Below the pieces are notes generated by a model. That model had not been told where the DNA came from and did not search any database. It saw only the letters and a list, made by a program, of their open reading frames with translations. From the IMG/VR virus record IMGVR_UViG_3300046512_000087, positions 29,404 to 93,403 of that record: a stretch of 64,000 nucleotides of DNA. One strand, written 5' to 3'. A program made the position numbers and the translations under genes. This stretch comes from a virus. This document shows, one piece after another, positions 490 through 61,989 of this stretch (position 1 is the stretch's first letter; every line of letters starts with the position of its first letter).

Positions 490-939
490 TCAGATAACGG
501 GGATCGGTACTGCCCAGCGCTGAGCCCACATCACCGTACCGTTCTTTTCATCCTCCGGGGTCTCCAGCAAAAAGCGGTAGAGGTGCCCGGATGGCGAGCG
601 TTTAGCGCGCATGGCCTTGCGGATCTCACCCATGATTCTCAGGTTACTGGCCTTGGCCTGGGGCGTGTTCAGGCTCTGACCTTCAGCAATGATCAGGACT
701 GTGAAGATGGCCTCGCCAGACGTGCCTGTACGGTTGGTGTCCTTGCCGGGCTCTGCTATAGCACGCATGCCCTCATAAATGACACCAGCACACGGCTTCA
801 CCGCTGCCTTGGATTTATCCATGAGTTCTTCGTAGCTCAGGACCGGGATCACTTTGTCGGTGAGTTTTGCAATTGATTGCAAGATCTCCTTCAGCTCATC
901 CATTACCCTGATGACCACATCGGTGTTGTCGGTAATCAT
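490..939 (-). CDS. tail completion/terminator-like protein
   Basis: 149 aa; size and position between the virion morphogenesis gene and the tail tube gene. Confidence 0.55.
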   Translation of the reverse strand: MITDNTDVVIRVMDELKEILQSIAKLTDKVIPVLSYEELMDKSKAAVKPCAGVIYEGMRAIAEPGKDTNRTGTSGEAIFTVLIIAEGQSLNTPQAKASNLRIMGEIRKAMRAKRSPSGHLYRFLLETPEDEKNGTVMWAQRWAVPIPVI

Positions 940-1373
940 GCCAATGCCTTCTTGATACGTTTGATCAGCAGACTGGTCACCAGAGTGGCGTCCTGTTCAC
1001 TGAAGCCCAGGAAGACCCGCTGGAGCTGGCCGTCCGTTCCGTTGTTGTGCCTTGCAGCGTAGGGGACATCTGTGGAGATGATACGGGCATCAGGGCCGTC
1101 TGCCGCCAGCTGGAGCGACCTGAACAGCCTGCCAGTGTCGAACAGTGTCCCACCGCCTCTACCAGTGCGCGCACGTTTCTTTGCGGCGCCAGACTGCACC
1201 CAGGGCGTCCCATCGGGATTCACCTGTTGCAGGTAGCGGGTACGGATGCGGTTAAAAAGAAAAGCCCCTGCCTCGTCAAGAATCTGAACGGTGTCAAGGG
1301 CTTGTTCCAGGTTCTTCAGGACAGCATCTACACCTGCTTGCCCTATAACGGTAACGCTGAGTCTTGTGGTCAT
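936..1373 (-). CDS. phage virion morphogenesis (Mu gpG / P2 gpS-like) protein
   Basis: Motifs PDGTPW, LFDTGRLFRSL, YAARHNNG, RVFLG. Confidence 0.8.
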   Translation of the reverse strand: MTTRLSVTVIGQAGVDAVLKNLEQALDTVQILDEAGAFLFNRIRTRYLQQVNPDGTPWVQSGAAKKRARTGRGGGTLFDTGRLFRSLQLAADGPDARIISTDVPYAARHNNGTDGQLQRVFLGFSEQDATLVTSLLIKRIKKALA

Positions 1374-1987
1374 CAGAACACCGGTCGGTAGGTGAAGCCG
1401 ATGTTCCTCAGATAAGGGCTCACGATAGCCATGGCATGATCACCCGACATACGAGCGCCCTTCTCGGCTTCGTCATTGCGGTTGGTAGGGGCGCCGAAGT
1501 TCCAGACGACGGGCACATAAGCCAGGATAGCCTCGGTGAGCCAGTCAGGCACGATCTCGATGTCCGAGTCTTCGTAGCCCGAGGAATATGCCACCTTCAC
1601 GAACTTGTCGGAGTACATCCGTTGGTCCACGTAGACGATTCCTCGAATGTAATCCACCTTGCCCGCTGTGGTGATATCCAGGGGCTCGTTGCATTCGTTC
1701 CAGGCCCGGCCACTGGTGATAGTCAGGGCGAGGTCTTTGCGTGCGAGGCCAGAACGCAGCTTCAGTCGGAACAAGCCCGCTGGAACTACGTCGTTGAAGA
1801 CACCCGGGTCGAGGTGAAAGATATCTTCACTCTCCTGGAACTGGAGATTGGAATCCAGCTCCACGCCGATCCTCAATTGAGCCGCACCGATTGCCGACTC
1901 AATAAAGGGAGCTACACCCAGGATGTCATCACCGATGGCCATGCGGCTTTTCACTACTTCGTTTGAAATCAGCAAAATGTCAGTCAT
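1373..1987 (-). CDS. head-tail connector/adaptor protein
   Basis: YSSGY...VPDWLTEAIL motif; position downstream of the capsid gene. Confidence 0.65.
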   Translation of the reverse strand: MTDILLISNEVVKSRMAIGDDILGVAPFIESAIGAAQLRIGVELDSNLQFQESEDIFHLDPGVFNDVVPAGLFRLKLRSGLARKDLALTITSGRAWNECNEPLDITTAGKVDYIRGIVYVDQRMYSDKFVKVAYSSGYEDSDIEIVPDWLTEAILAYVPVVWNFGAPTNRNDEAEKGARMSGDHAMAIVSPYLRNIGFTYRPVF

Positions 1988-2001
1988 GGCCTTGCTCCTG
2001 G

Positions 2002-2427
2002 TTAGACCGGTACGCCGTCGCCGTCGTTTTCCGAACCTTCAGGACCGTCTTCATCCAGGTGGTCGAAGAGTTCTGCTTCTTCTTCCTCGGTGGACAGGCT
2101 CAGACGGCCTTTGGAATCAACGGCGCCTTGTTCCAGCAGAGCGGCGTTGGCACTGATCGTTTCTTCACGCTGGAAGTAGTTGTCGATCTTGCCCTGGCGG
2201 TCCTGGGCTTCAGGCTTTTTCCAGCGCTTGAACATCGGTGCGCCGTCCAGTTCCCAGCCCAGCATGACCAGAGCCTGATCCTTGTTGGCGGTGTAGGTCA
2301 CGCCCGACTCGTAGAGCTTGCCCTGGCGATGCACACGTTGGACTTTACCGGCCAGGACCAGCTTCACGGTCTCTACTGCCGGTGCGGCGTTTTCATTTGC
2401 GTCTTTGTCGGTGATGTTGATGCCCAT
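2002..2427 (-). CDS. hypothetical protein (acidic C-terminus)
   Basis: 141 aa ORF with GGAG RBS. Confidence 0.65.
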   Translation of the reverse strand: MGINITDKDANENAAPAVETVKLVLAGKVQRVHRQGKLYESGVTYTANKDQALVMLGWELDGAPMFKRWKKPEAQDRQGKIDNYFQREETISANAALLEQGAVDSKGRLSLSTEEEEAELFDHLDEDGPEGSENDGDGVPV

Positions 2428-2498
2428 TGCCCTGTTACTCCACTGTTTTGGGAAAACCCGATTCTAGGGCCTTCTTGCAATTGATTGCAACGCCCAAT

Positions 2499-2531
2499 AA
2501 AAAAAGGGCGAAGCCTAAGCCCGCCCTTTTT
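2499..2531. terminator. bidirectional intrinsic terminator after major capsid gene
   Basis: aaaaaaGGGCG-loop-CGCCCtttttt. Confidence 0.8.
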
Positions 2532-5319: not shown

Positions 5320-5519
5320 TGAACTCCTGCAATTGATTGCAAGACTGTGGGGTCTGGCTCGGCACCGAACAACTCCTTCAGTCTTGCATCTGTATAGCCC
5401 AATTGAGACTTGAAAAACTCCCTGGACACGGTGTTATGCGTGATCTTCAGCGCAGCCAACGAGGCGTCTGTCAGGTCGATCTTCCCATCCATTACTTTCA
5501 CGGCCTGCTTACGCATCAC
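5316..5519 (-). CDS. hypothetical protein
   Basis: 67 aa ORF overlapping its neighbours in the operon. Confidence 0.55.
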   Translation of the reverse strand: MMRKQAVKVMDGKIDLTDASLAALKITHNTVSREFFKSQLGYTDARLKELFGAEPDPTVLQSIAGVQ

Positions 5520-7119
5520 CTTCTCCCAGGTTCTTCAGCACATCGGGGTCATCCGGCTTCACGCTCAAGGGGCTGCTCTTGCCTGCCAACAGGATCTTGC
5601 CAATAGGCTGACCGTCAATGCGGAAGGGAAGGTCTACAAGCGCCACCAGGGCCTTGGGGTCGCTGCTCTCCAGCAGATCTGTTACAGCCTTCTGCTCGTT
5701 CACTGTCAGGGTCAAGAACTCGTCATGCAGGGCACCACCCTGTAGTAGATCAATCTGGATTTGCTCCTTGAGGCTGTACCAGTCCGCTGATGCCGCTGTG
5801 TATCCGAGCTTGCTGTAGGTGTAGATGCCCAGGCTGCCCCCGGCTCCTACGGTGAAGATCTCGGCCCCCACCAGGGTGGAAGTCTTCATCATGGAGACAT
5901 GCAGGCGCCTGAAGAACAGGGCAGCCAGCTTCGGGTCGGCTGTCTTGAAGTCAATGAAGTTCGCGTACATGGTCCCAGTGAACGGGTCGAACACGGCATT
6001 GGCGTCGGCCACAATTCGAGGCTCTACGATCCTGGCGCGCATGCTGATTTCACCGTCTTCAGTGAACTTCAACAGGCCCTTGGTCTCGGAATCCAGCAGG
6101 TCTTTTGGAGCAAGGCCGGACAGCTCTGAAAGAACCTTGACAGGGCTCACACCAACATAGGAGTTCCAGTAGTCAAGCTGTGCCTGGGTAACTGGGGACT
6201 TCAGCTCATCGAAAGCACTCTCGGTGACGATCTCCCTGCTGGACTCTGTAGCGGTGGTCTCTTTCGGCACCAATACCGTGGTCTGTGCCGTACGCACACA
6301 AAGAGTCCTGCACCCAGGGTGAAAGGGTGGGATGTGCAAGCCCGCTGCCGTAAGTTGTTCAGCAGTCATCTCCTTGTAGGTCTTCAACGCCTCCGTGGTC
6401 TGCTTAGGCCAGGGCTGCACGGTCTTCAGGTCATCAGGGTTCTCCACCTTCAAGATCCTGGTGATCGACTCATGGGCATCTTCCACCCTGAAAACATGAC
6501 CATTGATGATCCGGCAGAAGGCACTGGTACGGCCATCAAGCACAGCGTCGAGGCGGTAGTCCGAGAACCCGAGTAGGTCTGCCTCCGCAGTGAACCCCCA
6601 GGTGGACAGCCTGCTGGCCTGCAAGGTGGCAAGCATCTGCATGCGCTCGTTACCCGTAGAGGCAAAGGAGACAAATTCGTCGAGGAATCGTGGCTTATCA
6701 GCCTTCTGGGCTACCCCATACTCGGCTTCCGAGTTTGCAATCAATTGCAAAGCCTTGTCCTGTACAGCTTCTGTCCCATTCAACGCAATGGACTGAATCA
6801 GAATCGTAGTCGTGTGGTTCAGCGTTTCATCGTACTTCCCGTTGGAAAACAGGGGGCTACGGGTTTGGGAGGCTTGGGCGGCGCCGAACACAGCAAAGGC
6901 CCACAGGGAATACTTCAGGTACTCACGGTTGGCCTCGGCGGCTGGCTTCAGGTCAATGGTGTCTACCAGCGCCCGGGCCGCATCAAAGTTACCACCGGCA
7001 ATCTCCTTGGTCATCTTCGCGTAAATGGCTGCCGCCTGTGGCGCCCAGGTCTTGTAGAGCCGGGCCATCATCCCCGACTCGATCTCCAGGTAAGTCCTGA
7101 CGTCCATCAGTGGCAGCAC
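5509..7119 (-). CDS. MuF/SPP1 gp7-like head morphogenesis protein with C-terminal extension
   Basis: AVLDGRTSAFC and PPFHPGCR MuF motifs; lies next to the portal gene. Confidence 0.8.
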   Translation of the reverse strand: MLPLMDVRTYLEIESGMMARLYKTWAPQAAAIYAKMTKEIAGGNFDAARALVDTIDLKPAAEANREYLKYSLWAFAVFGAAQASQTRSPLFSNGKYDETLNHTTTILIQSIALNGTEAVQDKALQLIANSEAEYGVAQKADKPRFLDEFVSFASTGNERMQMLATLQASRLSTWGFTAEADLLGFSDYRLDAVLDGRTSAFCRIINGHVFRVEDAHESITRILKVENPDDLKTVQPWPKQTTEALKTYKEMTAEQLTAAGLHIPPFHPGCRTLCVRTAQTTVLVPKETTATESSREIVTESAFDELKSPVTQAQLDYWNSYVGVSPVKVLSELSGLAPKDLLDSETKGLLKFTEDGEISMRARIVEPRIVADANAVFDPFTGTMYANFIDFKTADPKLAALFFRRLHVSMMKTSTLVGAEIFTVGAGGSLGIYTYSKLGYTAASADWYSLKEQIQIDLLQGGALHDEFLTLTVNEQKAVTDLLESSDPKALVALVDLPFRIDGQPIGKILLAGKSSPLSVKPDDPDVLKNLGEGDA

Positions 7120-8960: not shown

Positions 8961-8986
8961 AGGGTTTTGCAATTGATTGCAGGAAA

Positions 8987-12643: not shown

Positions 12644-13496
12644 GTTGGGCTTCCTTCAGGTTCTTGGCCTGCTGGTCAAAGCTGATACCGAGGTCCATCA
12701 ACACCGCGCCAATCACTCGGGGCGATGGGATGCCAGTGCAATCCAGATGAACCGACCAGTAACCGTTGTCAGTGAGACTGGCTGTCTCCGAGAAGCCCAG
12801 AGCCTTCAACTTACCCTTCTCGAAAGCGTTGGGTACGCCTTCAGCTCGCAAGGACACCTCGGAACCGTTGATTCGGGCAGCCACTTTCAGGCGCTGGGAG
12901 ATAGCTACAGCCCGGTAGATAGAACCTGGACTGGTGCCCCGAGTCATCTGGCCGACCACTGAGGCTGTGCGCAGCTGCACAACGTCTTTGAGGTTTACCT
13001 TCTTGGGCCCGGCGTCAAACATAGAGGGAACTGGGGCTGGGCCAATCACTGGCTTGGACGGGCCGAACTCGTTGCTGTAGTCGATTCCCGTTACCTTGGT
13101 CTTGAGATCTTCACCCACCAGTTTTGCAATTGATTGCACAGTCTCGGCAGATGCCTCGGTGACTTCAGGTTTCACCTTGGGCTTTACCAAAGCGTCAGGG
13201 TCATAGGTCAGGACGGCATTACCCTGGAGCCACTGATCAGCGCAGTCAGCCAGCAGCTTCTGCACCAATTTTGCTGAGATAATGAAAGTGGCTTCTGGCG
13301 CGTTTCCCTTTAACAGCGAGCTGGTGGAGACCGAAGTGTTGATCTTCATCACCGAGCCGTTGTTGTTCATCGACACGGAGTAGAAGCCAATCTCCGCTTT
13401 AATCCCAGCACTCACCAGGGCCTTATAAGTCACCGAGTGATCAGGGGCCATCTTCTCGAAAAAATCTACAGGATTCATACTTAACTTGATCCCCAT
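12633..13496 (-). CDS. hypothetical protein
   Basis: 287 aa behind a promoter and CAATGGAGT RBS. Confidence 0.75.
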   Translation of the reverse strand: MGIKLSMNPVDFFEKMAPDHSVTYKALVSAGIKAEIGFYSVSMNNNGSVMKINTSVSTSSLLKGNAPEATFIISAKLVQKLLADCADQWLQGNAVLTYDPDALVKPKVKPEVTEASAETVQSIAKLVGEDLKTKVTGIDYSNEFGPSKPVIGPAPVPSMFDAGPKKVNLKDVVQLRTASVVGQMTRGTSPGSIYRAVAISQRLKVAARINGSEVSLRAEGVPNAFEKGKLKALGFSETASLTDNGYWSVHLDCTGIPSPRVIGAVLMDLGISFDQQAKNLKEAQLEN

Positions 13497-14262: not shown

Positions 14263-15320
14263 ACTCCATTGGTTTCAAGTTTTTTCTTGCGGATGAAAAT
14301 CTTGGCTTGTTTCCCTGGCATGACCGGGAAGGCCCCAGTGACAAGAAAGCCGGACTTCGTTTTTTCTGGCTCTGGCGGTTTCGGCGGAAACTTGGACTGC
14401 TGTTCCTTGATCTTCGAGTCGTAGTTGTGAAGAGCGCCAAGGTCTTTCACCTGCTGCCAGTTCACTTCCGAACCAAACAGATGCGGTTTCAGCTTGTTCA
14501 CCACATCCAGGCAGTAAAACACATCCTGAGAACAAGCAACTGGGCACTCTGAGTTCAGGATCATTTCCGGGATCTGACCAGAGCGCTGTACATCCAGGAT
14601 CGTGTACAGGCCCTGCCCAAAATGTTCGTACAGCATGCCCTTGTTGAACATCGGGCCATTGTTGTGGGCCAGGGTGTACGAAGTGTCCAGCATCACTTCC
14701 ATGCTGGTCTTCCCATGCAGCATATGCTCCAGGGTCTGAGAGATCAGGCCCCAGGGCTTGCCGCCGTAGCCACCACCAAACTTTCCGTTGTTGAACATAT
14801 AGGTGATGCCAGACGACAGGACGCCAATGCTGGTCTCCATATTAGATTCAACAAAGGCATTGGCCGCTGCATCAGAGCCCTTCCCCCGGATTTCCCGGTT
14901 GAAGTCAAAGGTCTCCATACCGTACAGCTCTTTGTACTTGGCCCAGAATGCATCCGTGCTGTGGTCATGGATATGCCGGGACTCACGCACGGTGATCAGA
15001 ATCATGTAGAACAACATCCGAGTACCCTGGCGCTCCAGAACCTGATGGTAAATCTGGGCCACCTTGGCAGCCCATTCAGGAAGTGGTTCGTTCGGCGTGA
15101 ACTCGGCTTTCACAACAGCCATCAAATGGTTCATGGCGTAGAAGTCTAGGGCTTCCCTTTCAGGTACGGCTTTATTCAGCCCGCCCTTCTCGACTTTACC
15201 TTTCCAGAACTCTTTGCAATTGATTGCAAGAACCTTTGATGGCGTGGACATCAGCTTGACGGGTCGGATGTACGGTGACTCCGAATACCAGCTCAAAGTC
15301 TGCGATTTGCCGTGTAACAT
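14259..15320 (-). CDS. conserved-looking hypothetical protein between two phosphatases
   Basis: 353 aa; RESRH, GGGYGGKPW, AHNNGPMFNK segments; own promoter and RBS. Confidence 0.75.
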   Translation of the reverse strand: MLHGKSQTLSWYSESPYIRPVKLMSTPSKVLAINCKEFWKGKVEKGGLNKAVPEREALDFYAMNHLMAVVKAEFTPNEPLPEWAAKVAQIYHQVLERQGTRMLFYMILITVRESRHIHDHSTDAFWAKYKELYGMETFDFNREIRGKGSDAAANAFVESNMETSIGVLSSGITYMFNNGKFGGGYGGKPWGLISQTLEHMLHGKTSMEVMLDTSYTLAHNNGPMFNKGMLYEHFGQGLYTILDVQRSGQIPEMILNSECPVACSQDVFYCLDVVNKLKPHLFGSEVNWQQVKDLGALHNYDSKIKEQQSKFPPKPPEPEKTKSGFLVTGAFPVMPGKQAKIFIRKKKLETNGV

Positions 15321-42243: not shown

Positions 42244-42310
42244 TCAATTGGGTTTGTCCGTTGTTCTTATCTTACGGGTTTGTCCAATCGTTTGCAATTG
42301 ATTGCAGGAA

Positions 42311-43785: not shown

Positions 43786-44206
43786 ATAAGTTTGCAATTG
43801 ATTGCACGGCAGGTTCGGAACACCGTTGCTGCGGCTCGGCAGTAGCGTCTCCGGCTTTCACACTTACATGCCAGTGCATTGACACGCCGCCCCGACTTAC
43901 CAGGTCTTTCTCCCGGCACTTGTGGCCGGACTCCTGTTACGAGGAACGGTAGCCGCTGGCATAAGGGCCGCATCTTTAAGCTATCCTCCGCGTGCAATCT
44001 TGCAATACCGTGTTGGCAGTGGCCTCTACTACGACTGCCCGGCAGCATCGGTGAGTTGTCAGTGCAACCGCATCCCGACTGTGGCTGGTCAACCACTACC
44101 ACCCTGTGCTGGACACCAGCGTCAATGTGTAGGCCAAGTCTCTAATCACCATTGCGGTGTGGATCGCGGCGCTAGCTCAATCAGCCTACGCCAAATCACG
44201 GGCAAG

Positions 44207-45519: not shown

Positions 45520-47373
45520 CTACGCGGTCTCTGCATCTTGGTATTCAGCAGTCTCTTCTTTCACTCTGCTGGCGCTCAGGTACTCTTCTGTCGGGGCTAT
45601 GCCATGCTGACCCCACACTTCCCTACGTAGACAGATGCCATACACAACGCCTGCAAGGGCGTCTGCCACGTCTTTCGAGTTGTAGGCGTTGTGGTCTACC
45701 TTTTTCTTCTTATGGTTGATCTCAAGGGCTACCAGCTCCTTCTGCAACAGGTCGTGGTGGGGGAGCATGACGCGCTGATCATACAGAGCCCGCTTCAACA
45801 TGCTGTACGGCACCATGCTGGTGTCCATGGATTCAATGCCTGCCGCAAAGCCCTTCTGCCTGAGGATCTGTACGGTGTCTCGGCTCTGGTAACTGTCGAG
45901 GCTCACCCACTGGATAGGCATGCCCAGGTCCCGCAGCTTATACAGCAGACTCCTGATCTTGTTGAACTGGATCTCCCCTGCTGGAGGCGGGCGCACTTCC
46001 AACACCATGTCGATATGGACTTCGGGGCACATCTCTTCTTCCCTCAGCACGAACCGAGGTACATGGCCAATGACTACCCCGGCGCTGTCTCCTGTCAATG
46101 CCAAGTCGATGTGGCAATACCGGGGGTACTGAAGGTTCTTGAACCTCTTCGGCAGGATGATGCAAGGCATGGTCTGGAAGTCAGTTACCTGATCCCGGAC
46201 GACGTTATGACCCTTGCCAAAGTTCGACACCACCATCTCACTGTTGGGCATGAACGGGGCGGTGGCCAGGGTGCTATGACCAGCGATGTCTCGTAGGGCC
46301 TTGGTGATGTCTTCCTTGAACTCCTGGGCGAACTCTACGGGCACATGGTCGAGCAAGTGCATGTCCTGCTCTGGCAGCTCTTCTGCTTCCTGCTCTGTCA
46401 GTACACGGGGGCGGCGCACAGCATCCCCCACGAACAATGGGAACATGTCGCCACAGAAGGCATGAGGCTTGATATCCCATACGCGCTTGTCATAGACGAA
46501 GATGCGCGGGTTTTCTTTGGCCTCTTCCATCTTAGTATCCGTGAACTCGCCGGGTATACGCTTAGACGAGACCACGCACAACAGCCCTGGGATATTACGG
46601 CCTGCCTGCATGAAGCGGGACTTACGGCGCCGGGCAATCGAGTTATACAACTCAACAGCTTGGTTGTAAGTGCCGCCATCTGCCGACTGCTTCGAGTTCT
46701 CAACTACCGCCATGAAGTTGATCTCGTCGATGATGCCTCCAATGATGTTCTGGCCAATCGAAGCCGTCTCGCTACCGGACACTGGCTCTACTTCGATGTT
46801 GTTGTCGAAGCGCAGGATCGAGGTCAGGCTACGGTCGAACGGGAATACGGTCTTGAAGTAAGGGCTCGCGGCGATCAGGTTGTAGAACCGGTTGAAGTCA
46901 ACGGTCTTGGCCGTGCTCTTACGCAGGGACTGGAAGATCATCTTCAGTTCTGAACTGGAGTCCAGGCCAAACGACTGCTGGGGGTTCGCCATGCAGGACA
47001 GCACATACAGTTGATACGCCTGGGAGTACAGGGCAATCGTAGTCTTGGCTGACCCGATGCCTCCTGTGAGTACAGCCTCATCATAGCGCCCGCTGTTCAT
47101 CTCTTCGAACTCACGGAGTACAGGCGGGTAGACCTCACTGGCCTTGTTCAGATAGAACTGGCTACACAGAAAGGTCTTAGCATCTACTGGCTCTCGTACC
47201 CAGGAGATCGGGGCGAGGAATTCCTTGTCGTTAGCCACCAACATCTTGATCAGATTCACCAGCCATAGATGGCGTCGGTCTGGATCGGTGATGGTGTTGG
47301 CCTGTGCAATCAATTGCAAAGTTCGCTGAGGCCCCAGCAGTCCTTCTAACACTCGCTCGGGGGTTGGCCTCAT
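45520..47373 (-). CDS. terL: terminase large subunit
   Basis: LTGGIGSAKT (Walker A), GGIIDEINF (Walker B), HIDLALTGD and KVDH..SKDVADA nuclease motifs. Confidence 0.9.
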   Translation of the reverse strand: MRPTPERVLEGLLGPQRTLQLIAQANTITDPDRRHLWLVNLIKMLVANDKEFLAPISWVREPVDAKTFLCSQFYLNKASEVYPPVLREFEEMNSGRYDEAVLTGGIGSAKTTIALYSQAYQLYVLSCMANPQQSFGLDSSSELKMIFQSLRKSTAKTVDFNRFYNLIAASPYFKTVFPFDRSLTSILRFDNNIEVEPVSGSETASIGQNIIGGIIDEINFMAVVENSKQSADGGTYNQAVELYNSIARRRKSRFMQAGRNIPGLLCVVSSKRIPGEFTDTKMEEAKENPRIFVYDKRVWDIKPHAFCGDMFPLFVGDAVRRPRVLTEQEAEELPEQDMHLLDHVPVEFAQEFKEDITKALRDIAGHSTLATAPFMPNSEMVVSNFGKGHNVVRDQVTDFQTMPCIILPKRFKNLQYPRYCHIDLALTGDSAGVVIGHVPRFVLREEEMCPEVHIDMVLEVRPPPAGEIQFNKIRSLLYKLRDLGMPIQWVSLDSYQSRDTVQILRQKGFAAGIESMDTSMVPYSMLKRALYDQRVMLPHHDLLQKELVALEINHKKKKVDHNAYNSKDVADALAGVVYGICLRREVWGQHGIAPTEEYLSASRVKEETAEYQDAETA

Positions 47374-48056: not shown

Positions 48057-48854
48057 TTAGCCCTCTACCTTCTCTACCTCGGGGAAGTCCTTCAGAGACT
48101 CCCACAGTTCTGGCATGCCACCTCCTGCAATTGATTGCAAAACCAGACGTACCATCGAGTCCATGCCACGGTTCATTTCCTGGCAGCGGGTAGCCACCTG
48201 AGTGAAGGCTTTCAGGTCATGGGTCTTCAGTGGCAGCCACACGGATTCCTGCTTACCGAAGTCCAGGATCATGAAGCCGAAGGGGAGGGTGTCACCGTAC
48301 TTGGTGAACATTTTGTTTAGCAACACGGACAGACCGTCGATGGTCTTGATCTCTTCCGCTGCCTTCTTGAACTCGGCCTGGGCCTGCTTAGGGAGAGAGT
48401 CGGACATCTGCCCTATCAGCTTCTTGAACAGATCTTCGTCCGCGAAACCAAAAGACTCGGCCAGGAGGTCATCAGAGTATTTCTGGTTCAGGCTCTGGTA
48501 CAGCTTCAGGAACTTCGGAGTATCCAGCTTACCTCTGATCATGTTCATCCGAGTGATCTGGAAGCGCTCCAGGTCTTCGTCGAACTCAGGGTCGTCAATG
48601 ATGGTGCAGGGCACTTCATCAAAGCCCAGGAGCTTGCCTGCTTCATAGCGGTGATAGCCACCAATGACTCGGTACTTGCCCCCATCAATAGGTCTTACGA
48701 ACACTGGATCAATGAAGCCCACGGCGTCGATGTTTGCACACAGGAGATTGAACTCCTTGGCTGACATTTTGTTAGGGTTAATTTCCTGCGGAACGAGCAA
48801 ATCTACCGCAATATTGGCCCGAATTAGCGCTTTTGTCTTAGTTACCGCGTCCAT
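48057..48854 (-). CDS. ParB/Srx N-terminal domain protein with possible HTH
   Basis: NPNKM, GFIDPVFVR, YRVIGGYHRY; YSDDLLAESFGF HTH-like segment; start at ATG 48854 behind AAGGAG. Confidence 0.85.
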   Translation of the reverse strand: MDAVTKTKALIRANIAVDLLVPQEINPNKMSAKEFNLLCANIDAVGFIDPVFVRPIDGGKYRVIGGYHRYEAGKLLGFDEVPCTIIDDPEFDEDLERFQITRMNMIRGKLDTPKFLKLYQSLNQKYSDDLLAESFGFADEDLFKKLIGQMSDSLPKQAQAEFKKAAEEIKTIDGLSVLLNKMFTKYGDTLPFGFMILDFGKQESVWLPLKTHDLKAFTQVATRCQEMNRGMDSMVRLVLQSIAGGGMPELWESLKDFPEVEKVEG

Positions 48855-48864
48855 GTCATACTCC

Positions 48865-49959
48865 TTATGGGCTTGGCGTCTGGAAGCAATTTGGATACTG
48901 AGGACCGGAATCATATCGAGGTAGGCCTAGTATTGATAGCCTGTCGAAGGGTTTCTGTTGTTCGTAGCCGATCTCCATGTTCTCCAACTCTGTTATCAGA
49001 GCGGTATGATCTTGAACTTTTCTCAGCGTCTCAATACTTTCAGAAATCTTATCCAGTGACAGCACTGACTCTCTCACTCTCAGTACCTCTGTGTTCTCAG
49101 TCTTCTCTGTCTCTCCTGTACATAGTTCTTCGTGTAGCTTCTCTCCTGGTCGTAATCCTATTTCTTTTATCTTCAACGGGATTTGCATCTGTTCTGCTAC
49201 CCACGACGCTACCTCGGCAATTTTTTTGGGCTCGCCCATGGTTAGCAGGAAGCGCTGGCCTTGCAATTGATTGCAGGAAGTCACGAGGCTAACTGCCTCT
49301 GGGATGCTCATGAAGAACCTTGTCACAGACATGTCGGTAATCGTCACAGGCATACCCAGGCTCAGTTGCTCATAGAACAGAGGGATCACAGAGCCTGATG
49401 AGCCTATGACGTTACCGAACCTTACTACCTTGCTGCCTTCCACCATACTCAATGCCATATGCTCTACCAGGGCCTTTGTCGCCCCCATTACATTGGCTGG
49501 CTTCACTGCTTTGTCTGTGCTGATTACTACCAGGGATATAGGGGCCCGCAAATTTTTGAGCATGGTGAACAACGAGTGGGCTTCCAGCACATTGTTGTCT
49601 ACAGCCGAGAGCGAGTTCTCTTCCACCATTGGCACATGCTTGTAAGCGCCTGCGTGGAAGCACAGTGTTGGTTCATAGTCTTCAAGCACCTTCTGGAGTC
49701 TTGGGCTTCCATAGCTACCCAGCACTGGCTTTGTTACCACGCCCATCGACACCAGCTTCCGATTGATCTCGTACAGTGAGAACTCATTCAGCTCTACCAG
49801 CACAAGCCTCGACACGCCTTGCAGTGCCAGGAAGGTACACAGGGCGGAACCGATGCTGCCCCCGGCGCCGGTAACCATTATGGTCTGCCCCTGGTACTGA
49901 GTGCCTGTCTCCCATTTGTCCTGGCCCAAGCGAGCCACTAGAGCTTCCAGTGTAATCAT
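48865..49959 (-). CDS. NDP-sugar 4,6-dehydratase (CapD/PglF/WbpM family, soluble domain)
   Basis: VTGAGGSIGS, HAGAYKHVP, ISTDKAV.P.NVMGATK, VRFGNVIGSSGSVIPLF, GLRPGEKLHEEL. Confidence 0.92.
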   Translation of the reverse strand: MITLEALVARLGQDKWETGTQYQGQTIMVTGAGGSIGSALCTFLALQGVSRLVLVELNEFSLYEINRKLVSMGVVTKPVLGSYGSPRLQKVLEDYEPTLCFHAGAYKHVPMVEENSLSAVDNNVLEAHSLFTMLKNLRAPISLVVISTDKAVKPANVMGATKALVEHMALSMVEGSKVVRFGNVIGSSGSVIPLFYEQLSLGMPVTITDMSVTRFFMSIPEAVSLVTSCNQLQGQRFLLTMGEPKKIAEVASWVAEQMQIPLKIKEIGLRPGEKLHEELCTGETEKTENTEVLRVRESVLSLDKISESIETLRKVQDHTALITELENMEIGYEQQKPFDRLSILGLPRYDSGPQYPNCFQTPSP

Positions 49960-51479: not shown

Positions 51480-52153
51480 GGGAGTTCCTTGTCAATGATT
51501 CGAATGGGTACATAGGCCTCGGCAATTCCCTTGCCCATCTGTAGGCCTCGGGTTTTTGCCAGGGTCACCAGACCGTCGTAGCCCACGATGCTCTTTTCCC
51601 GTCCAGACACCTGAGAGGCATGGCATGCGTAGGCTGCCAGCTTGGCTTCCAGGTCTTCCGAGACGAGCCCGACGTACCGCGTGCAATTGATTGCAAAACC
51701 CAATTGCGGGCCGTGGTACTGAGTCGGCTGCTCATAGGCGTAGACACTGGCACCCTCAGCCTTGGTAGGGCGTAGGGCTGCCGTACAGGCCTCCCAGACG
51801 ACGTTGTGATCTTTTGCATGGCTGGGTAGCGGGATGTAGATCTCGTCGTACCCTTCGCGTAATACGGCGTCAAGGGCCGTCACCAGTTTGGAGATAGGCT
51901 GCTGGTCAAAGTTGGAGGCCGATGCAAAGTTCAGCCAGTGGATGTTCGACACCTTGAGGACTTCAGCCGCTTTCTTCTGCTCGTCCATCCGGGTAGTCCA
52001 GCTCACCTTACTACCTGAAGCCATGGCCAGGGTTCCCGAGCCACAAACTACCGCAATGTCAACGGTGTGACCGGCCTTGGACATCTTGTACATGAGCCCG
52101 CCACAGCCAATTTCTACATCGTCTGGGTGTGGGCTGATAAAGAGTGCTTTCAT
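51476..52153 (-). CDS. PIG-L/LmbE family de-N-acetylase
   Basis: SPHPDDVEIGCGG, HAKDH, K..AYACHASQ, AEAY; start at ATG 52153. Confidence 0.9.
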   Translation of the reverse strand: MKALFISPHPDDVEIGCGGLMYKMSKAGHTVDIAVVCGSGTLAMASGSKVSWTTRMDEQKKAAEVLKVSNIHWLNFASASNFDQQPISKLVTALDAVLREGYDEIYIPLPSHAKDHNVVWEACTAALRPTKAEGASVYAYEQPTQYHGPQLGFAINCTRYVGLVSEDLEAKLAAYACHASQVSGREKSIVGYDGLVTLAKTRGLQMGKGIAEAYVPIRIIDKELP

Positions 52154-53710: not shown

Positions 53711-53712
53711 GG

Positions 53713-54336: not shown

Positions 54337-54992
54337 TCAGCGGCTCCAAGGACTTGAGAAAGGGGGTGCTCATGCTCTGCAATCAATTGCAAAATAGAAT
54401 CCGTGCTCAATCCTTGAGTAAGGTGCTGGTAGTGGACGGGGTACTGGAAGTCAGAATCCATGTAGGCCTTCGCGCCAATACCGGCCAGATACCGGAAGTC
54501 TGTTCCTACGTTGCGCTCTAACCGGGTCTGTAGACGCTGGGTCTTGCTTGGGCCCGCTGTGGGCTCTTCGTCAAACACCAGGGGGGTAGTGATGCCCAGG
54601 AGGGTAGCCAGCTGGTACATCAGGACTTTGTTCAGATAGACCAGGGGGACCGGCTCCTGAGTCAGGACATGCAGAAGGTTAACTACTCCCTCCAGGCGGT
54701 GGTGGAACTTGAAGCGCTTCACCATCAGGCTCTTTTCGATCCTTTGGCAAATGCCACCATCGCTGGTAATGATGATGTCTGCCAGTCTCGGCCCGGTCTG
54801 CTGGAAGGGCAGGGTAACCCAAGCATTCTGGATCTTGACTCGGTGTTCAAAATCCCTGCGGCTGAAGTCCGTGGCATTGGAGATCACGCAAACATCCGCC
54901 GACGCCACCTTGTTCCAAAATCCAATCCAGGGCAGGAAGACAGACTGGTGGCTGGCCACTTTTTTAGGAGCAGGCTTTAATCCGTGCATCAA
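54324..54992 (-). CDS. WbqC-like protein (putative amino-sugar acyl/glycyl transferase)
   Basis: HQSVFLPWIGFWNKV..AD, YLAGIGAKAYM, LS.DSI. Confidence 0.8.
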   Translation of the reverse strand: MMHGLKPAPKKVASHQSVFLPWIGFWNKVASADVCVISNATDFSRRDFEHRVKIQNAWVTLPFQQTGPRLADIIITSDGGICQRIEKSLMVKRFKFHHRLEGVVNLLHVLTQEPVPLVYLNKVLMYQLATLLGITTPLVFDEEPTAGPSKTQRLQTRLERNVGTDFRYLAGIGAKAYMDSDFQYPVHYQHLTQGLSTDSILQLIAEHEHPLSQVLGAAEWKP

Positions 54993-56375: not shown

Positions 56376-56446
56376 ACACTCCGTTGGTTATTGATACCTC
56401 TCCATGTCGGACTTCTTACTCGACAACTTTTGCAATTGATTGCAAG

Positions 56447-57074: not shown

Positions 57075-57097
57075 ACCTACTCCTTAAAGTTTTGCAA

Positions 57098-57292
57098 TCA
57101 ATTGCACAGGACTACACTCACGTCTTCGATGACCAGTCGGCGCCCCGCTGAGACAGACAGGTGTAACGCTTGTACCTGCCTACCTGTTTGCGAGCCCAGT
57201 AAATTCAGTCTCCGCTGCACGTAGTCTCTGATGTCCCTCTCCGCTTCTGTGCGGAGCATCACTTCTACTTCTTGGGGGACCGACTGGCTCAT
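57098..57292 (-). CDS. hypothetical protein
   Basis: 64 aa. Confidence 0.45.
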   Translation of the reverse strand: MSQSVPQEVEVMLRTEAERDIRDYVQRRLNLLGSQTGRQVQALHLSVSAGRRLVIEDVSVVLCN

Positions 57293-57971: not shown

Positions 57972-58352
57972 TTACAGTGGCTTTACAACACAGACAATAC
58001 TGCGTGTCTTTTTGCAGATCACGGTATGGGTGATGGCGTAGGACTTGCCGTCGATTTCCCAGGAGTCACCCAGCTCTGCATAGGCCTCTTCCAGGTTCTT
58101 GTCGGCTTCAATCTCGTATTCCTCGGCCAATTTATCCCGGATAAACACCCGAAAATGATTGGGCTTGGTGTCAGCAGAGAAGCGGCCACGCCATGCCAAA
58201 TACCGAGTAACCCCTACATGGATCATGCAGAGGATGGCGCAGGTGAAGCACATCAGGGCCAAGATGCTTTCGGTAGTGACAGAGCCCAGGATCAGGAACT
58301 GCATACCTGTAACGCTTTGATACTGAGTTGGTGTCATGGTTGGTTCCTGCAA
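57972..58352 (-). CDS. hypothetical membrane protein
   Basis: Hydrophobic N-terminal segment. Confidence 0.55.
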   Translation of the reverse strand: MQEPTMTPTQYQSVTGMQFLILGSVTTESILALMCFTCAILCMIHVGVTRYLAWRGRFSADTKPNHFRVFIRDKLAEEYEIEADKNLEEAYAELGDSWEIDGKSYAITHTVICKKTRSIVCVVKPL

Positions 58353-58365
58353 TTGATTGCAAACG

Positions 58366-60002: not shown

Positions 60003-60797
60003 TTAGACCTTCACTTCCAGATCGACTTCCGGGAACAACTCGGAGAAGGCAGTCAGCGCGCCTTCCCAGCCCAGGGTGCCCATCAAAGACTTCAGGTCAG
60101 TGACGGCATCGCCGCTGGATTCGGCCTTGGCCAAAGCGCTGTTGCCACCGACGTAACCGGCACAGATCATTTCCAGGGCCACGTTGTCGTACTCGGTGCT
60201 GCATTCGGCCTTGGCCTTGTTCAGCGCGGTAGTAACGATTTCCGACTGGTCGTTGTGCAGCTTGAAGGTGATCTTGGTGATGTCGTCTTTGGTGCTGGCT
60301 TCACCGCCTTCACCCTTGTCCAGGGTTGCCTTCAACATCGCTTGCAGCTCGACCACAGTGCAGTTGCTGGCCTTCTCGACCCAGCTGTCAACGTTGTCAA
60401 CGGTCAGGTGGCGGGCCAGCTCTTTCAGCTTGGTCCAGCCCAGGCCCTGCACTTTTTCCCAGGGAATCTGCTTACCGACCAGCTCGGTGTAGATTTCCAT
60501 CAGGTAGCGAGCTTTGCGGCCTTGGAAGCCATAGCGCTCGTACACGAAGAGGTCGAACGACTCGTAGCCTTCGAACCACGCATTGTCGAAGATCACCTTC
60601 AACACTCCGCCCAGCTTGAAGTAGTCGGACTCGATGCTGTCGGCCAGCTTCTCGGCCATGTTCAAAGCCTTGGTTTTGGTCAGCTGCTCGACTTCCAGGG
60701 CGGTGTTCTGCAACCAGTCAGCACTGGTGGCCGCTTCTTTCTTGGCCTTGGTTTCAGTTGCTGGCTTGACTTCTTGCTCTTGACTCATTTCATGCAC
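60003..60797 (-). CDS. hypothetical, probably abundant DNA-binding/replication-associated protein
   Basis: 264 aa with own promoter and terminator; GYESF..F....G...RKA.YL...LGWTKL pattern. Confidence 0.7.
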   Translation of the reverse strand: MHEMSQEQEVKPATETKAKKEAATSADWLQNTALEVEQLTKTKALNMAEKLADSIESDYFKLGGVLKVIFDNAWFEGYESFDLFVYERYGFQGRKARYLMEIYTELVGKQIPWEKVQGLGWTKLKELARHLTVDNVDSWVEKASNCTVVELQAMLKATLDKGEGGEASTKDDITKITFKLHNDQSEIVTTALNKAKAECSTEYDNVALEMICAGYVGGNSALAKAESSGDAVTDLKSLMGTLGWEGALTAFSELFPEVDLEVKV

Positions 60798-60840
60798 TCC
60801 TAGCGGTATAAGGGGAGGGAGTTATTTGCCCTGTCCCCTT

Positions 60841-60868
60841 ATTCTACCTATTACGTGGGGTTTGTCCA
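60841..60868 (-). promoter_or_regulatory. sigma70-like promoter with palindrome upstream
   Basis: TGGACA-16bp-TAGAAT; palindrome at 60876. Confidence 0.65.
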
Positions 60869-60893
60869 ATTGTTTTGCAATTGATTGCAGGAA

Positions 60894-61514
60894 TTACGCT
60901 ACCGGCTCAGCGGTGTCTGCCTTCACAGCAGGCGGTTTCGGGGCGAAGAACTCGGGGCCCCAGATGCTGGACAGATAGCTGAAGTGGTCGGCCAGGACCT
61001 CGGCAGGCGCGATCTTCAACAGGGCGTACGTGAACGCATACACCTCGTTCAACAGCTCAGTCAGCTTGGCCTGTGCCTGAGCCACGGTGCTCTCGTCCAT
61101 GTCCAGCTTCTCGGTCAGGCCACCGCCATCGGTGAGCACGCGGACCAGGGACAGCAGGTCGTTGGACAGGCGGTGGATGTGCAGCAGGGATTCAGTGGTG
61201 GTCTCGCCAACCAGCTTCACCTTCTTGCCCGAGCCTGGAAGTTTTACCTTCAGGGCCTTGGCCAGTACGAAGGAGTGCTCGAAGACCGGGCCCAGATCAC
61301 GGTAGGCCTCTGCTTTCAGTTCTTCGTTGAGCTGGGTGCCTGCCACATACGGGGACAGCGTGGTCATCAGGGTGCCAGCGGCTACGGCCAGGGAAATCGC
61401 CGCGTGGACGTAAGTGGCGGTGAGGGTCTTGCGAGGCAGTACGCGCAGGTGGGATTTGACGTCTTTGACAGGGGCGACCAGGGCCGCTGCACGTTTAAAG
61501 GCATTAGCTTGCAT
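60894..61514 (-). CDS. hypothetical protein
   Basis: Start placed at ATG 61514 (MQANAF) behind AAGGAG. Confidence 0.65.
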   Translation of the reverse strand: MQANAFKRAAALVAPVKDVKSHLRVLPRKTLTATYVHAAISLAVAAGTLMTTLSPYVAGTQLNEELKAEAYRDLGPVFEHSFVLAKALKVKLPGSGKKVKLVGETTTESLLHIHRLSNDLLSLVRVLTDGGGLTEKLDMDESTVAQAQAKLTELLNEVYAFTYALLKIAPAEVLADHFSYLSSIWGPEFFAPKPPAVKADTAEPVA

Positions 61515-61989
61515 GAAAAACTCCTTTCGGAAGAATGAGGAAATCAGATTTAGCGATGTGTTCCCCCAGTCTTGCCAGGGCATATCCATCGACAACATCG
61601 TCTGACTTAGATTCAAATCCCCAGCGCTCCTTAACAGCAGCAGCCATCTGAGGTTTCTTTGCATTCCCCTTGCCGGTGATGAACAGCTTCAGCGACGTGG
61701 GAGGCACCAACCACCACGAATGGCCCAACTCTTTCAGGCCTAAACGTATTCCGGTGCCGATTTCGACCAAATCTACCAGACTGTTCTTGTTACCAAAAGC
61801 ATAATCTTCGATAACGATCAAATCTGGGGTCCATTCCGCTACTACGTTCTTGACTGACTTTGCAATCAATTGCACGCGGTCAAAACCTTTGGCCTTGGGG
61901 AAGTGAATAAGTTTCGAGCCATACGTCTCTCCGTTATCCACGCACCCCATCCCGGTGTAGGTACTGATGTCGATGCCAACTACTCGCAT
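61504..61989 (-). CDS. ruvC: RuvC-like Holliday junction resolvase
   Basis: VVGIDIS..TG, IVIEDY, PTSLK.FITGKGNAKK, DDVVDG. Confidence 0.85.
   Translation of the reverse strand: MRVVGIDISTYTGMGCVDNGETYGSKLIHFPKAKGFDRVQLIAKSVKNVVAEWTPDLIVIEDYAFGNKNSLVDLVEIGTGIRLGLKELGHSWWLVPPTSLKLFITGKGNAKKPQMAAAVKERWGFESKSDDVVDGYALARLGEHIAKSDFLILPKGVFHAS

Follow-up and report, generated by a model that had tools for sequence, protein, structure and literature searches.

A family-wide array of 14-bp palindromes in phage genomes, possibly operators for a dimeric ParB/KorB-type protein

The palindrome array and its position relative to genes

The window analysed here is a 64-kb stretch of DNA (bases 29404–93403 of a 93,403-bp phage record), and all genes (about 118) lie on the minus strand. 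A sequence scan found 34 exact and 3 one-mismatch copies of a 14-bp palindrome in the window, 27 on the plus and 10 on the minus strand, which recovers every copy and the strand split given in an earlier sequence-only reading. The three variants (20060, 23543 and 34201) carry one common substitution, ATTGCA to AGTGCA, and the central TG/CA was invariant in the window, as that reading had noted. Because all genes are on the minus strand, most copies read TGCAATCAATTGCA on the coding strand; the orientation bias relative to transcription was consistent (68–78%). The whole record holds 47 exact copies (32 plus, 15 minus) and 3 variants. The site core is AT-rich, in a genome of 55% GC.

One hundred dinucleotide-preserving shuffles of the window gave a mean of 0.02 copies (maximum 1) against the 37 observed, far below the real count, as had been claimed. 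Codon-shuffled sequence had been set beforehand as the test that could refute the array; coding sequence holds 28 copies, but synonymous-codon shuffling of the called genes left 0.35 (maximum 2), and the array therefore stands. Sites were also spaced more evenly than chance (inter-site CV of 0.55 versus 0.97–0.98 in two null models, P < 0.0002).

The sequence-only reading emphasized copies inside genes. The 28 copies are there, but a stronger pattern was hidden by that emphasis: enrichment at gene junctions and early promoters is the main anatomy of the array. Of 53 sites, 23 were intergenic and a further 14 lay within 25 codons of a gene end, so that about 70% of copies are between genes or close to a gene end, although coding sequence makes up 88% of the genome. 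Eight of 12 strict sigma70-like promoters had a site 4–14 bp upstream of the -35 box, and in one relative (L139) about 16 early promoters each have a site about 8 bp upstream. In the window, the promoter-proximal sites are 20305..20318 (+, 7 bp upstream of the -35 box of TGGACA-N-TACGAT), 38397..38410 (+), 43793..43806 (+) and 60876..60889 (+, in the promoter of the candidate reader gene described below), all at 7 bp; the variant 23543..23556 (+) at 6 bp; 25767..25780 (+) and 34924..34937 (−, the minority orientation) at 4 bp; and 40367..40380 (+) at 14 bp. These sites are centred near -47 to -57; for about 40 others, no promoter is close by.

A Shine-Dalgarno sequence (SD) directly follows about ten sites, and some are 0–6 nt from one. 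The protease gene (4714–5319) has site 5328..5341 (+) immediately before its SD and ATG, 36040..36053 (+) has the same position before another SD and ATG, and 57093..57106 (−) is intergenic, adjoins the SD and lies 18 nt before the ATG. The variant 20060..20073 (−, AGTGCA arm) is 4 nt before the ATG of a ligase-like gene (19102–20064), 35662..35675 (−) is 15 nt before that of the dUTPase gene, and 8968..8981 (+) is intergenic, with the portal gene starting 37 nt further on, a junction also occupied in G004. Just downstream of the major capsid gene (2549–3484), the intergenic site 2476..2489 (+) follows a terminator-like hairpin with the next start 48 nt on, and the same junction carries a site in DLP5 and G004. 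Further intergenic sites lie between a stop codon 9 nt before and an ATG 21 nt after (29358..29371, +), between a stop 8 nt before and a start 32 nt after (32848..32861, +), 4 nt after a stop and followed by a TTGGACAAACC promoter-like box (42293..42306, +) and 2 nt after a stop (56431..56444, +). The Arc-like gene ends 4 nt before site 58348..58361 (+), and another 10 nt separate this site from the ATG that follows. Site 54378..54391 (−) marks the junction of genes 54324–54992 and 53713–54336, whilst 61861..61874 (−) lies between called genes 60894–61664 and 62002–62898, in an uncalled ORF (61504–61989). Site 24027..24040 (+) is in a stretch without a called gene, and 24446..24459 (+) lies within what reads as a terminator-like hairpin (AAGGCC...GGCCTT, then a T run).

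Within genes, sites were found at codon 19 of 490–939 (868..881, +, LQSIA; shared with G001 at the orthologous codon), codon 123 of the MuF-like gene (6736..6749, −, LQLIA; also there in DLP5, G001, G004 and G005, some with a flipped centre), codon 119 of 12633–13496 (13125..13138, +) and codon 30 of 14259–15320 (15215..15228, +, AINC; the same codon in G004). The PPDK-like dikinase gene has two, at codon 483 (17402..17415, +) and at codon 381 (17708..17721, +, AINC), the latter shared with G004 and, flipped to AIDC, with DLP5. Others lie inside 33752–34858 (variant, 34201..34214, −), 48865–49959 (49262..49275, +) and 51476–52213 (51682..51695, +), and near the 5′ ends of 38573–39154 (39089..39102, −) and 44905–45510 (45424..45437, +). 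The sequence-only reading needs correcting on terL: 9456–11831 is DNA polymerase I, and the large terminase, by orthology to the annotated DLP3/DLP5 gene, is 45520–47373, with a site at codon 18 (47305..47318, −). Finally, 48126..48139 (+) is at codon 258 (QSIA) of a ParB/sulfiredoxin-like gene; DLP5 and TM16 share this codon, and Q.IA appears in the consensus of a 33-sequence family alignment.

Conservation of the site family among related phages

The repeat belongs to a family, TGCAA-N4-TTGCA, in which the arms are constant and the 4-bp centre is lineage-specific. Each of the 14 related genomes or fragments that were read end to end carries it, as do most of 67 additional metagenomic loci from IMG/VR; this is a large clade with dozens of evenly spaced copies per genome. 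Carriers are G001–G005, DLP5, DLP3, Summit, RcZahn, TM16, PG28, KarBoss and SIO-2; the cultured ones include Stenotrophomonas, Vibrio, Rhodobacter and Rhizobium phages, and the hosts span Alpha- and Gammaproteobacteria. The complete genome G001 has about 30 degenerate sites, a common variant in PG28 alters one arm only (TGCAGTTAATTGCA, 19 copies), and L159 has TGCAA-ACGT-TTGCA.

Between DLP5, DLP3 and Summit the conservation footprint is exactly 14 bp, with flanks at background: 21 of 25 sites were identical in DLP3 and 25 of 25 in Summit, against backgrounds of 18% and 37% identical 14-mers, respectively. Orthologues that are about 45% identical have their intragenic sites at the very same codons, and TCAA/TTGA flips of the centre at orthologous codons change the encoded residue (QSIA/QLIA, AINC/AIDC). 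The flank constraint is symmetric, with A absent at -1 to -3 and T absent at +1 to +3. The codon shuffling, the sharp 14-bp footprint and these fixed positions with a centre that is sometimes flipped bear out the earlier view that selection is at the DNA level, not on a protein motif.

In an Acidobacteriaceae MAG, 21 of 21 sites fell within the first 48 kb of one contig and no site of this type was found in the remaining roughly 4.65 Mb; the array is phage-specific. One relative sits at the end of a 374-kb bacterial contig.

Candidate readers and alternative explanations

Among the four proteins suggested as readers by the sequence-only reading, the best candidate is the product of 60003..60797 (−), a predicted ParB/KorB-type helix-turn-helix (HTH) protein of 264 aa (261 aa from the ATG) without the ParB N-domain. 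It belongs to phrog_17202 and matched no Pfam family. Its structure model (pLDDT 79) matched the ParB DNA-binding domain with parS (Z 7.7), Spo0J (Z 6.9) and the KorB DNA-binding domain with its operator (Z 6.7), and ParB/KorB/SopB/VirB DNA-binding domains made up 7 of the top 13 matches (Z 4.1–7.7), although scores of Z 6–8 are middling for an all-helical domain. Most other top-13 matches were Raf1 alpha-domains, including rank 1 (Z 9.0); Raf1 is not known to bind DNA. The gene was present in every relative checked, its HTH helix has invariant residues (R91, K92, Y95, I99 and Y100), and 28 of 60 related loci carry a site upstream of the gene. Recognition-helix variants track site variants; this covariation parallels the phylogeny, with exceptions both ways (L134, L144 and G001); in L143 the top palindrome differs, yet the homologue has a normal recognition helix.

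The other three fared poorly. The Arc-like protein (58366) occurs in this genome alone, not in its relatives, and is the single classic repressor domain among 30 small early-region proteins screened. The proposed winged HTH at 16446 was a poor candidate, its ORF having no Pfam family. The ParB-like protein at 48057 has a confident N-domain only, and is absent from a complete motif-carrying relative.

This last protein (48057..48914, −; Pfam ParB_N 2e-09) nevertheless gives the first alternative, in which it reads the sites, alone or with the 264-aa protein as a split ParB, as loading or targeting points for modification or packaging. Its ParB/sulfiredoxin-type N-domain matched PadC (Z 12.1), the KorB N-domain (Z 11.2) and sulfiredoxin (Z 9.8), and its best PDB sequence match is Noc. 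The gene lies between sugar-tailoring genes on one side and a 227-aa gene preceding terL on the other; the targets could be the terminase next to it, for packaging, or the nearby sugar-tailoring and glycosyltransferase genes, for a DNA modification that is site-directed or spreads. That its own gene carries the conserved codon-258 site recalls Bacillus subtilis, where a parS site lies inside spo0J. We consider this reading unlikely. The motif is GGYHR, not GERRxR, and although one Spo0J alignment extends to model residue 170 (Z 7.8, rmsd 4.7), the model past residue 110 is of low confidence with no clear HTH match. G001 lacks both this gene and the glycosyltransferase but keeps its degenerate sites, and in G003 and PG28 the protein is only 26% identical though the site arms are unchanged.

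At stoperators, which are numerous repressor-binding sites spread across a phage genome, elongation is stopped by the bound repressor (PMC9283540), and a separate lysogeny repressor might in this way shut early promoters and stop elongation across a plasmid prophage. The dispersed sites, mostly in short intergenic gaps with a bias to one orientation, would fit, as would the relative on the bacterial contig and the temperate lifestyle of DLP5 and DLP3, of which DLP5 was isolated as a phagemid (PMC5834331, PMC7326821). Stoperators are, however, asymmetric and bound by a monomeric two-domain repressor (PMC9283540, PMC6550527), whereas the phage site is nearly palindromic with symmetric flanks and flips orientation at orthologous positions. 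The screen of small early proteins yielded no conserved classic repressor domain, which together with these differences makes such immunity distinctly unlikely. The motif-carrying Vibrio relatives are described as lytic, so that lysogeny alone cannot be the whole role of the system.

The position near -47 to -57 of early promoters and the AT-rich core could also indicate a strong UP-like element for host polymerase, or a binding site for some conserved regulator of the host, LacI/PurR-type boxes being similar in appearance; the L159 form resembles a PurR box. This is very unlikely given the roughly 40 sites away from promoters (some next to an SD), the strict conservation of GC-containing arms, the differing centres between phage lineages, the absence of the 14-mer from 4.65 Mb of host DNA around a prophage, and the span of hosts over two proteobacterial classes. 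T5-type programmed nicks, or recombination or mobile-element junctions, are highly improbable: the regular spacing would suit them, as would the phage's HNH protein, its DNA ligase-like gene and its DNA polymerase, T5-like by the Summit annotation, but DLP5/DLP3/Summit mosaic breakpoints are not near sites (P = 0.48 and 0.91), the sites have stayed fixed over very long evolutionary times, and a palindrome nicked on both strands would be a double-strand break. The slimmest chance goes to an RNA hairpin for processing, stabilization or translational control near ribosome-binding sites, since although one-strand gene order means that every site is transcribed, and some precede an SD, the hairpin is weak (about -2.5 kcal/mol, 5-bp stem), arms are conserved and not co-varying, common variants such as that of PG28 alter one arm only, both loop orientations occur even at one orthologous position, and flank constraints are symmetric on DNA.

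Proposed operator function and known systems

The array is known in kind from plasmid RK2, and for these phages was not found in the literature searched. RK2 has 12 OB sites, the phage genome 47–50. KorB/OB on this IncP-1 plasmid is a 13–14-bp palindrome repeated around a mobile replicon, with some copies directly upstream of strong-promoter -35 boxes and others kilobases away or inside genes (PMC11790492). The phage array is alike in palindrome length, in its promoter-adjacent, remote and intragenic copies and in having a candidate with a ParB-type HTH. It differs in that the replicon is a tailed phage with lytic relatives carrying the array too, spacing is even, many intragenic sites are at conserved codons, and no ParA/IncC and no KorA-like partner was found. 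The candidate also lacks the CTPase N-domain and would form no sliding clamp on its own, so the KorB clamp mechanism is not simply transferable.

Noc of B. subtilis, a ParB-family protein without a ParA partner, reads palindromes of similar length (NBS) at many dispersed sites, which the phage arrangement resembles. Noc acts in chromosomal nucleoid occlusion, for which it requires a membrane-targeting helix and its CTPase N-domain; the phage array shows no sign of such a role. The plasmid prophage N15 likewise has palindromic SopB sites scattered in its genome, late region included, but these are four, with a SopA partner, against about 50 and no ParA found here. Like the array, Cluster A stoperators (L5, Bxb1) number in the dozens, are 13–14 bp long and are dispersed through the genome of a temperate phage; most occupy short gaps between genes, and they are orientation-biased and lineage-variable (PMC9283540, PMC6550527). 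In the present phages the orientation bias is only 68–78%, the fold of the candidate reader differs, and Proteobacteria are the hosts.

The favoured reading is operators for a dimeric phage protein, most probably the 264-aa product acting in the manner of KorB at OB sites, and we hold it with about even confidence. The earlier proposal of genome-wide binding sites for a dimeric protein agrees with all the sequence evidence tested (shuffles, footprint, symmetric flanks, flips and spacing). Its list of roles, from silencing and compaction to modification, packaging and ejection, was too broad to confirm, and the site anatomy points first to transcription control. The 14-bp element would be a double-stranded DNA site read by a homodimer, one TGCAA arm per subunit, the likeliest reader being this clade-wide protein with a modelled HTH core. 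The orientation bias is not accounted for by a symmetric dimer.

By analogy with KorB, the protein bound just upstream of the -35 box would turn down near-consensus early promoters, its own among them; from -47 to -57 it could instead activate. The remaining sites, roughly 40 at intervals of about 1.9 kb, lie at junctions and fixed codons and would hold the protein along the genome. Such occupancy would block read-through or organize the DNA of a genome transcribed from a single strand, and may serve the plasmid-prophage state known for DLP5 and DLP3.

A genome-wide array of 14-bp palindromes

Matches to TGCAATTGATTGCA with at most one mismatch numbered 37 in the window, 34 of them exact and three sharing one common substitution, with 27 on the plus strand and 10 on the minus strand. 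This confirmed the sequence-only reading in its count, composition, strand split and positions. Dinucleotide-preserving shuffles of the window held a mean of 0.02 copies. The window spans bases 29404-93403 of an IMG/VR virus record of 93,403 bp, estimated to be 95% complete, and across this whole record there were 47 exact copies and three variants. A self-trained codon model placed all of the approximately 118 genes on the minus strand (the gene calls come from our own simple codon model, and start codons are approximate), so TGCAATCAATTGCA is the majority form of the site on the coding strand (32 vs 15). The earlier claim that selection acts on the DNA rather than on a protein motif also stood: 28 sites were observed in coding sequence, compared with 0.35 (maximum 2) after synonymous codons were permuted within genes. 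The peptide (L/M/V)Q(S/L)IA occurred 18 times in the proteome, 18/18 on the motif, where residue shuffling expects 0.08, and AI(N/D)C was likewise found in the proteome of this phage only where a site is written. The peptide sequence at the sites is thus dictated by the DNA, and not the reverse.

Judged by DNA polymerase I (9456-11831), the closest cultured relatives were the Stenotrophomonas phages DLP5, Summit and DLP3 (genus Delepquintavirus), at 54–56% identity, with Rhodobacter phage RcZahn, Rhizobium phage RHph_TM16 and the Vibrio SIO-2 group more remote. Both DLP5 and DLP3 have a temperate lifestyle, the former having been recovered as a phagemid (PMC5834331, PMC7326821). Reciprocal best hits with DLP5 covered only 40 genes, with a median identity of 46%, and the phage is therefore a distant relative of DLP5. 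A megablast search of the phage collection with 20 kb of the window found no near-identical record. Nearly all genes lay on one strand in every relative with gene calls. No integrase or classic repressor was identified among the 50 proteins of this phage scanned in Pfam and the 10 scanned in PHROGs.

Palindromes of the family TGCAA-N4-TTGCA were present in every relative examined, far above the 0.02–0.07 copies expected from base composition, with constant arms and a 4-bp centre that varies by lineage. The centre TCAA/TTGA was shared by this phage (G000), DLP5, Summit, DLP3 and the related 30-kb fragment G004, with 11–47 exact copies each. Related genome G002 carried CCAC/GTGG (21 copies), G003 the perfectly palindromic CTAG (14 copies), and TM16 CATA/CAAA. 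Vibrio phage PG28 carried TGCAATTAATTGCA and TGCAGTTAATTGCA (approximately 27 copies), and looser variants were seen in RcZahn, KarBoss, SIO-2 and the related genomes G001 and G005. Most of 67 further IMG/VR loci encoding the candidate reader discussed below also held the site family, among them locus L139 with 29 copies of its site in 20 kb. In a metagenome-assembled genome (MAG) of the Acidobacteriaceae, 21/21 such sites fell within the opening 48 kb of one 374-kb contig and none in the remaining approximately 4.65 Mb, which marks the motif as specific to phages rather than a property of host DNA; either a prophage integrated there or a chimeric contig would account for this layout. The segment itself (G007:C20:1-48200) is a close relative of our phage at the end of the contig, with a candidate reader 55% identical, suggesting either an integrated prophage in a bacterium whose phylum is remote from those of the cultured hosts or, again, a chimeric contig.

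Some features of these genomes were recorded alongside the array. At L139:14600-15700, where the site is TGCAATTAATTGCA, eight sites are packed into approximately 1 kb, with recurring words similar to ACATGTTAA and a five-fold tandem repeat of GGAGAGTCTCGGC in between, an arrangement that resembles an origin or a centromere-like region. No iteron or origin-like cluster was found at 23400-26400 of the window, and a tandem-repeat search of the whole window returned only two short arrays. The gene at 9456-11831, taken for a terminase in the sequence-only reading, is DNA polymerase I. Adjoining it is a conserved block (13567-18866), all of whose genes are present in 8/8 complete relatives. It encodes a PPDK-like dikinase (655 aa; PPDK_N and PEP-utilizers swivel domains, with no further Pfam domain after approximately residue 460), two DSP-PTPase-like phosphatases (231 and 158 aa), labeled “thymidylate synthase” in PHROGs with no support from Pfam, and a 353-aa protein of unknown function (phrog_20946). 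The 90-aa protein of 16169-16441, conserved in 6/8 relatives, matched CsrA weakly in Pfam, with an E-value (1.5e-06) slightly above the cut-off. Adjacent genes at 20790-22540 encode a 270-aa protein of the GmrSD_N family (DUF262; E 2e-21) and a 313-aa HNH endonuclease, and the pair looks like a split GmrSD-type modification-dependent nuclease. Two large genes at 27264-31702, of 690 and 773 aa, contain repeats of the beta-propeller or BNR/sortilin type. They lie where AT skew turns positive (28001-32000), which happens nowhere else in the window, and GC skew is positive there too; this pair may be a recent acquisition, as the codon-model score of the 690-aa gene is barely over threshold.

Placement and conservation of the sites

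Enrichment of the sites at gene boundaries was strong in all genomes. In G000, 23/53 sites were intergenic and a further 14 lay within 25 codons of a gene end, while 15/16 sites in G003 were at boundaries. The usual layout was a stop codon, 2–12 nt and then the site, followed on its 3′ side by a near-consensus sigma70-type promoter, or by a Shine-Dalgarno sequence and ATG within 0–20 nt. Twelve promoters matched a strict T[GT]GACAAA-spacer-TAAGAT-like pattern, and in eight of these a site was positioned 4–14 bp upstream of the −35 box. Locus L139 had approximately 16 early promoters, each with a site approximately 8 bp upstream. A different word, the 10-mer CAATGGAGTG, lies over ribosome-binding sites and is among the most frequent in DLP5 (15 copies).

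Sites were more evenly spaced than chance in G000, DLP5 and G004 (coefficients of variation of 0.55, 0.44 and 0.39, compared with approximately 0.95 both under random positions and under random gene starts; P < 0.001), and regular spacing was not significant in G002 and G003. Orientation was biased relative to transcription by 68–78% in all asymmetric lineages (32:15 in G000, 18:8 in DLP5 and 16:5 in G002), and alike for intergenic and intragenic sites.

Between DLP5 and DLP3, which are 83% identical overall, 21/25 aligned sites were fully identical, compared with 18% of all 14-mers; between DLP5 and Summit (90% identical overall) the figures were 25/25 and 37%. Identity per position was 0.92–1.00 over exactly 14 bp, with background levels on either side. 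Intragenic sites kept the same codons among orthologs of approximately 45% identity, such as codon 123 of the MuF-like protein (five genomes), codon 381 of the dikinase (three genomes) and codon 258 of the ParB/Srx-like protein (G000, DLP5 and TM16), and several further genes likewise kept a site at the orthologous codon. These sites are old and position-specific. At several orthologous codons the centre was flipped, changing the residue (S/L or N/D). Both orientations of the centre are largely interchangeable. Constraint on the flanks was symmetric, with no A at three upstream positions and no T at three downstream; 12/14 positions of the site are palindromic, and several lineages have perfect palindromes.

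The candidate reader and its rivals

Given that phages of hosts as different as Vibrio and Stenotrophomonas share the same arms, a protein reading them should be clade-wide and have a conserved DNA-reading surface. Clustering the proteins of eight complete genomes left few non-structural core families of unknown role, among them a 264-aa protein encoded at 60003-60797. It belongs to phrog_17202 (unknown function) and to no Pfam family; it has 373 close homologs, and at 50% identity its family accounts for 3,286 representative clusters of a 1.8-billion-protein library. The DLP5 ortholog is encoded at bases 47752-48564 of the DLP5 record. Its AlphaFold model has a mean pLDDT of 79, rising above 90 over most of residues 30–150. 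Residues 37–165 of this model matched the DNA-binding domains of ParB on parS (6s6h; Z 7.7 over 116 aligned residues), Spo0J (Z 6.9) and KorB (Z 6.7 for the domain on its operator, 1r71, and 6.2 for 8qa8), with SopB, P1 ParB and VirB lower (Z 4.1–4.7). The alpha-domain of the Rubisco chaperone Raf1 scored Z 6.5–9.0, and unrelated folds below approximately 4.6. These alignments were made with VIA-align, which was clearer than Foldseek; Foldseek against the PDB returned nothing at E ≤ 0.001, and ParB entries only at E of approximately 1. As the Z-scores are middling for a helical domain, the model points to a ParB/KorB-type DNA-binding fold as probable rather than certain.

In the model, residues 78–105 form a helix-turn-helix, and all of 30 sequences have R91, K92, Y95, I99 and Y100 unchanged. 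The CTPase N-domain of ParB (GERRxR) is absent, a disordered N-terminus leading directly into the DNA-binding domain. The gene is the first behind a site-bearing promoter at 60797-60890 in G000, and a site lay upstream of it in 28/60 related loci, where a rough chance estimate from site density is approximately 18%. Longer homologs (approximately 400–435 aa) in G002, G003, RcZahn and TM16 have an extra N-terminal stretch of approximately 150 residues, which opens with a conserved peptide resembling S-L-x-L-L-K/N-G-G-K, continues with acidic linkers and is missing from the G000/DLP5 branch.

Variants of the recognition helix accompanied variants of the site. RKA[R/K]YL was found with CA/TG centres, YRKA[T/S/M]YW with TTAA (7/7 loci), RKAQYQ with CCAC, RKAKYF with ACGT, and DRTIRYM with GGCAAT arms. 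As this sequence correlation follows phylogeny and has exceptions, it is no more than suggestive for the candidate as the reader.

The main rival is the ParB/Srx-like protein encoded at 48057-48914, which may be the reader in its stead or, possibly, its partner. Its assignment was confident only for a ParB/sulfiredoxin N-domain, the model matching PadC (Z 12.1), the KorB N-domain (Z 11.2) and sulfiredoxin (Z 9.8), with the motif GGYHR in place of GERRxR. The complete genome G001 encodes neither this protein nor the glycosyltransferase, and keeps the sites in degenerate form. The gene is encoded with sugar-tailoring genes beside the terminase: the cluster from it to 56061 (48057-56061), annotated in the sequence-only reading as sugar-tailoring enzymes and a glycosyltransferase, lies upstream of a gene pair ending in terL. 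Within it, a 486-aa gene (50019-51479) has homologs in most relatives and is absent from G001, G003 and PG28, which keep the motif.

These two proteins could also act as a split ParB, with the product of 60003-60797 marking the approximately 50 positions and recruiting the separate ParB/sulfiredoxin N-domain protein, so that the lattice would direct DNA glycosylation or a packaging-coupled step and not transcription alone. We consider this very improbable; if true, it would be a site-addressed genome-marking system with no described counterpart. As other readers, an Arc-like protein was set aside because it occurs only in G000, and the ORF at 16446 because it matches no Pfam family; in another twenty small early proteins, Pfam showed no DNA-binding domain.

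Several readings of the site that involve no such reader were rejected. The −24/−12 elements of the sigma54 consensus are separated by 2 bp more than the arms of the site, and a sigma54 promoter was rejected on this spacing. Only the ATCAA core of the IHF consensus fits the site, and lineages with other centres lack this core. Promoters for a phage RNA polymerase were also rejected, as none of ten large proteins scanned in Pfam was an RNA polymerase, and as several sites lie 9–11 nt from an ATG and therefore have no room to be promoters for that gene. A structured RNA or REP-like hairpin was dismissed because the fold is weak (approximately −2.5 kcal/mol) and the arms are conserved in sequence without compensatory change, common variants altering a single arm; a role at recombination or mosaic junctions was dismissed because breakpoints between DLP5 and DLP3/Summit were no nearer to sites than random positions.

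Comparison with known operator systems and significance

The explanation we prefer is an operator array for a ParB/KorB-type protein, for which KorB of plasmid RK2, itself of the ParB family, is the closest worked example (PMC11790492). On RK2, some OB operators lie directly upstream of −35 boxes, and OB also represses from 4 bp upstream of the −35 box or from 1.5 kb away (PMC11790492). The array resembles this network in being a short palindrome dispersed over the replicon (47 exact copies and three variants in 93 kb) and present in relatives, and in having some sites immediately before −35 boxes, here at 8/12 strict promoters. It differs in that the candidate reader lacks the CTPase N-domain (GERRxR) of clamp-forming ParB proteins. 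No KGGxGK[ST] Walker box of a ParA/IncC partner was found in the called proteins, which contained only helicase-like and AAA-like P-loops.

By analogy with KorB, the candidate reader would repress the near-consensus early promoters, giving early shut-off, silencing of a plasmid-prophage, or both. We favor repression because, in our judgement, near-consensus promoters should not need an activator. Promoter-distal sites may act as roadblocks or architectural anchors on a genome transcribed in one direction; KorB-type sliding cannot be assumed for them, as the candidate has no clamp domain.

Stoperators of Cluster A mycobacteriophages are mostly in short intergenic regions, and the sites here are likewise mostly intergenic or near gene ends (37/53 sites in G000, 15/16 in G003). 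Cluster A phages are temperate and have an immunity repressor; of the phages here, the relatives DLP5 and DLP3 are temperate, and the scanned proteins of G000 included no classic repressor. In contrast to stoperators, which are asymmetric, bound by a monomeric repressor and set in one orientation to transcription, the sites here are 12/14 palindromic with symmetric flanks, occur at 32:15 in G000 and flip at orthologous codons. A ParABS centromere has a few parS sites clustered near parAB, unlike the approximately 50 evenly spaced sites here, and no ParA was found by the Walker-box pattern.

The motif strings were not found in the searchable literature, where the sole substring match came from a Salmonella paper on another subject. 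Neither the DLP3 nor the RcZahn paper mentions palindromes, and promoters go unmentioned in the DLP3 paper. The kind of system is known from KorB/OB, Noc/NBS and stoperators. The new elements are its occurrence across a large clade of proteobacterial phages, a candidate reader with the DNA-binding domain only, the even spacing, and intragenic sites fixed at codons.

The array is a hallmark of a very large phage clade and is undescribed in the literature searched. Cultured members of this clade have been put forward for therapeutic or biocontrol use (Stenotrophomonas DLP3, DLP5 and Summit; Vibrio PG28 and SIO-2), and the hypothesis is therefore directly testable at the bench. If it is true, the motif would be a simple signature for recognizing prophages of the clade and mapping their early promoters. 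Regulatory DNA would also be able to dictate protein sequence, the site peptides staying at the same codons across approximately 45% protein identity, and the plasmid-style global control circuit of KorB/OB would have an equivalent in phages, based on a DNA-binding domain of the ParB type without the clamp domain.
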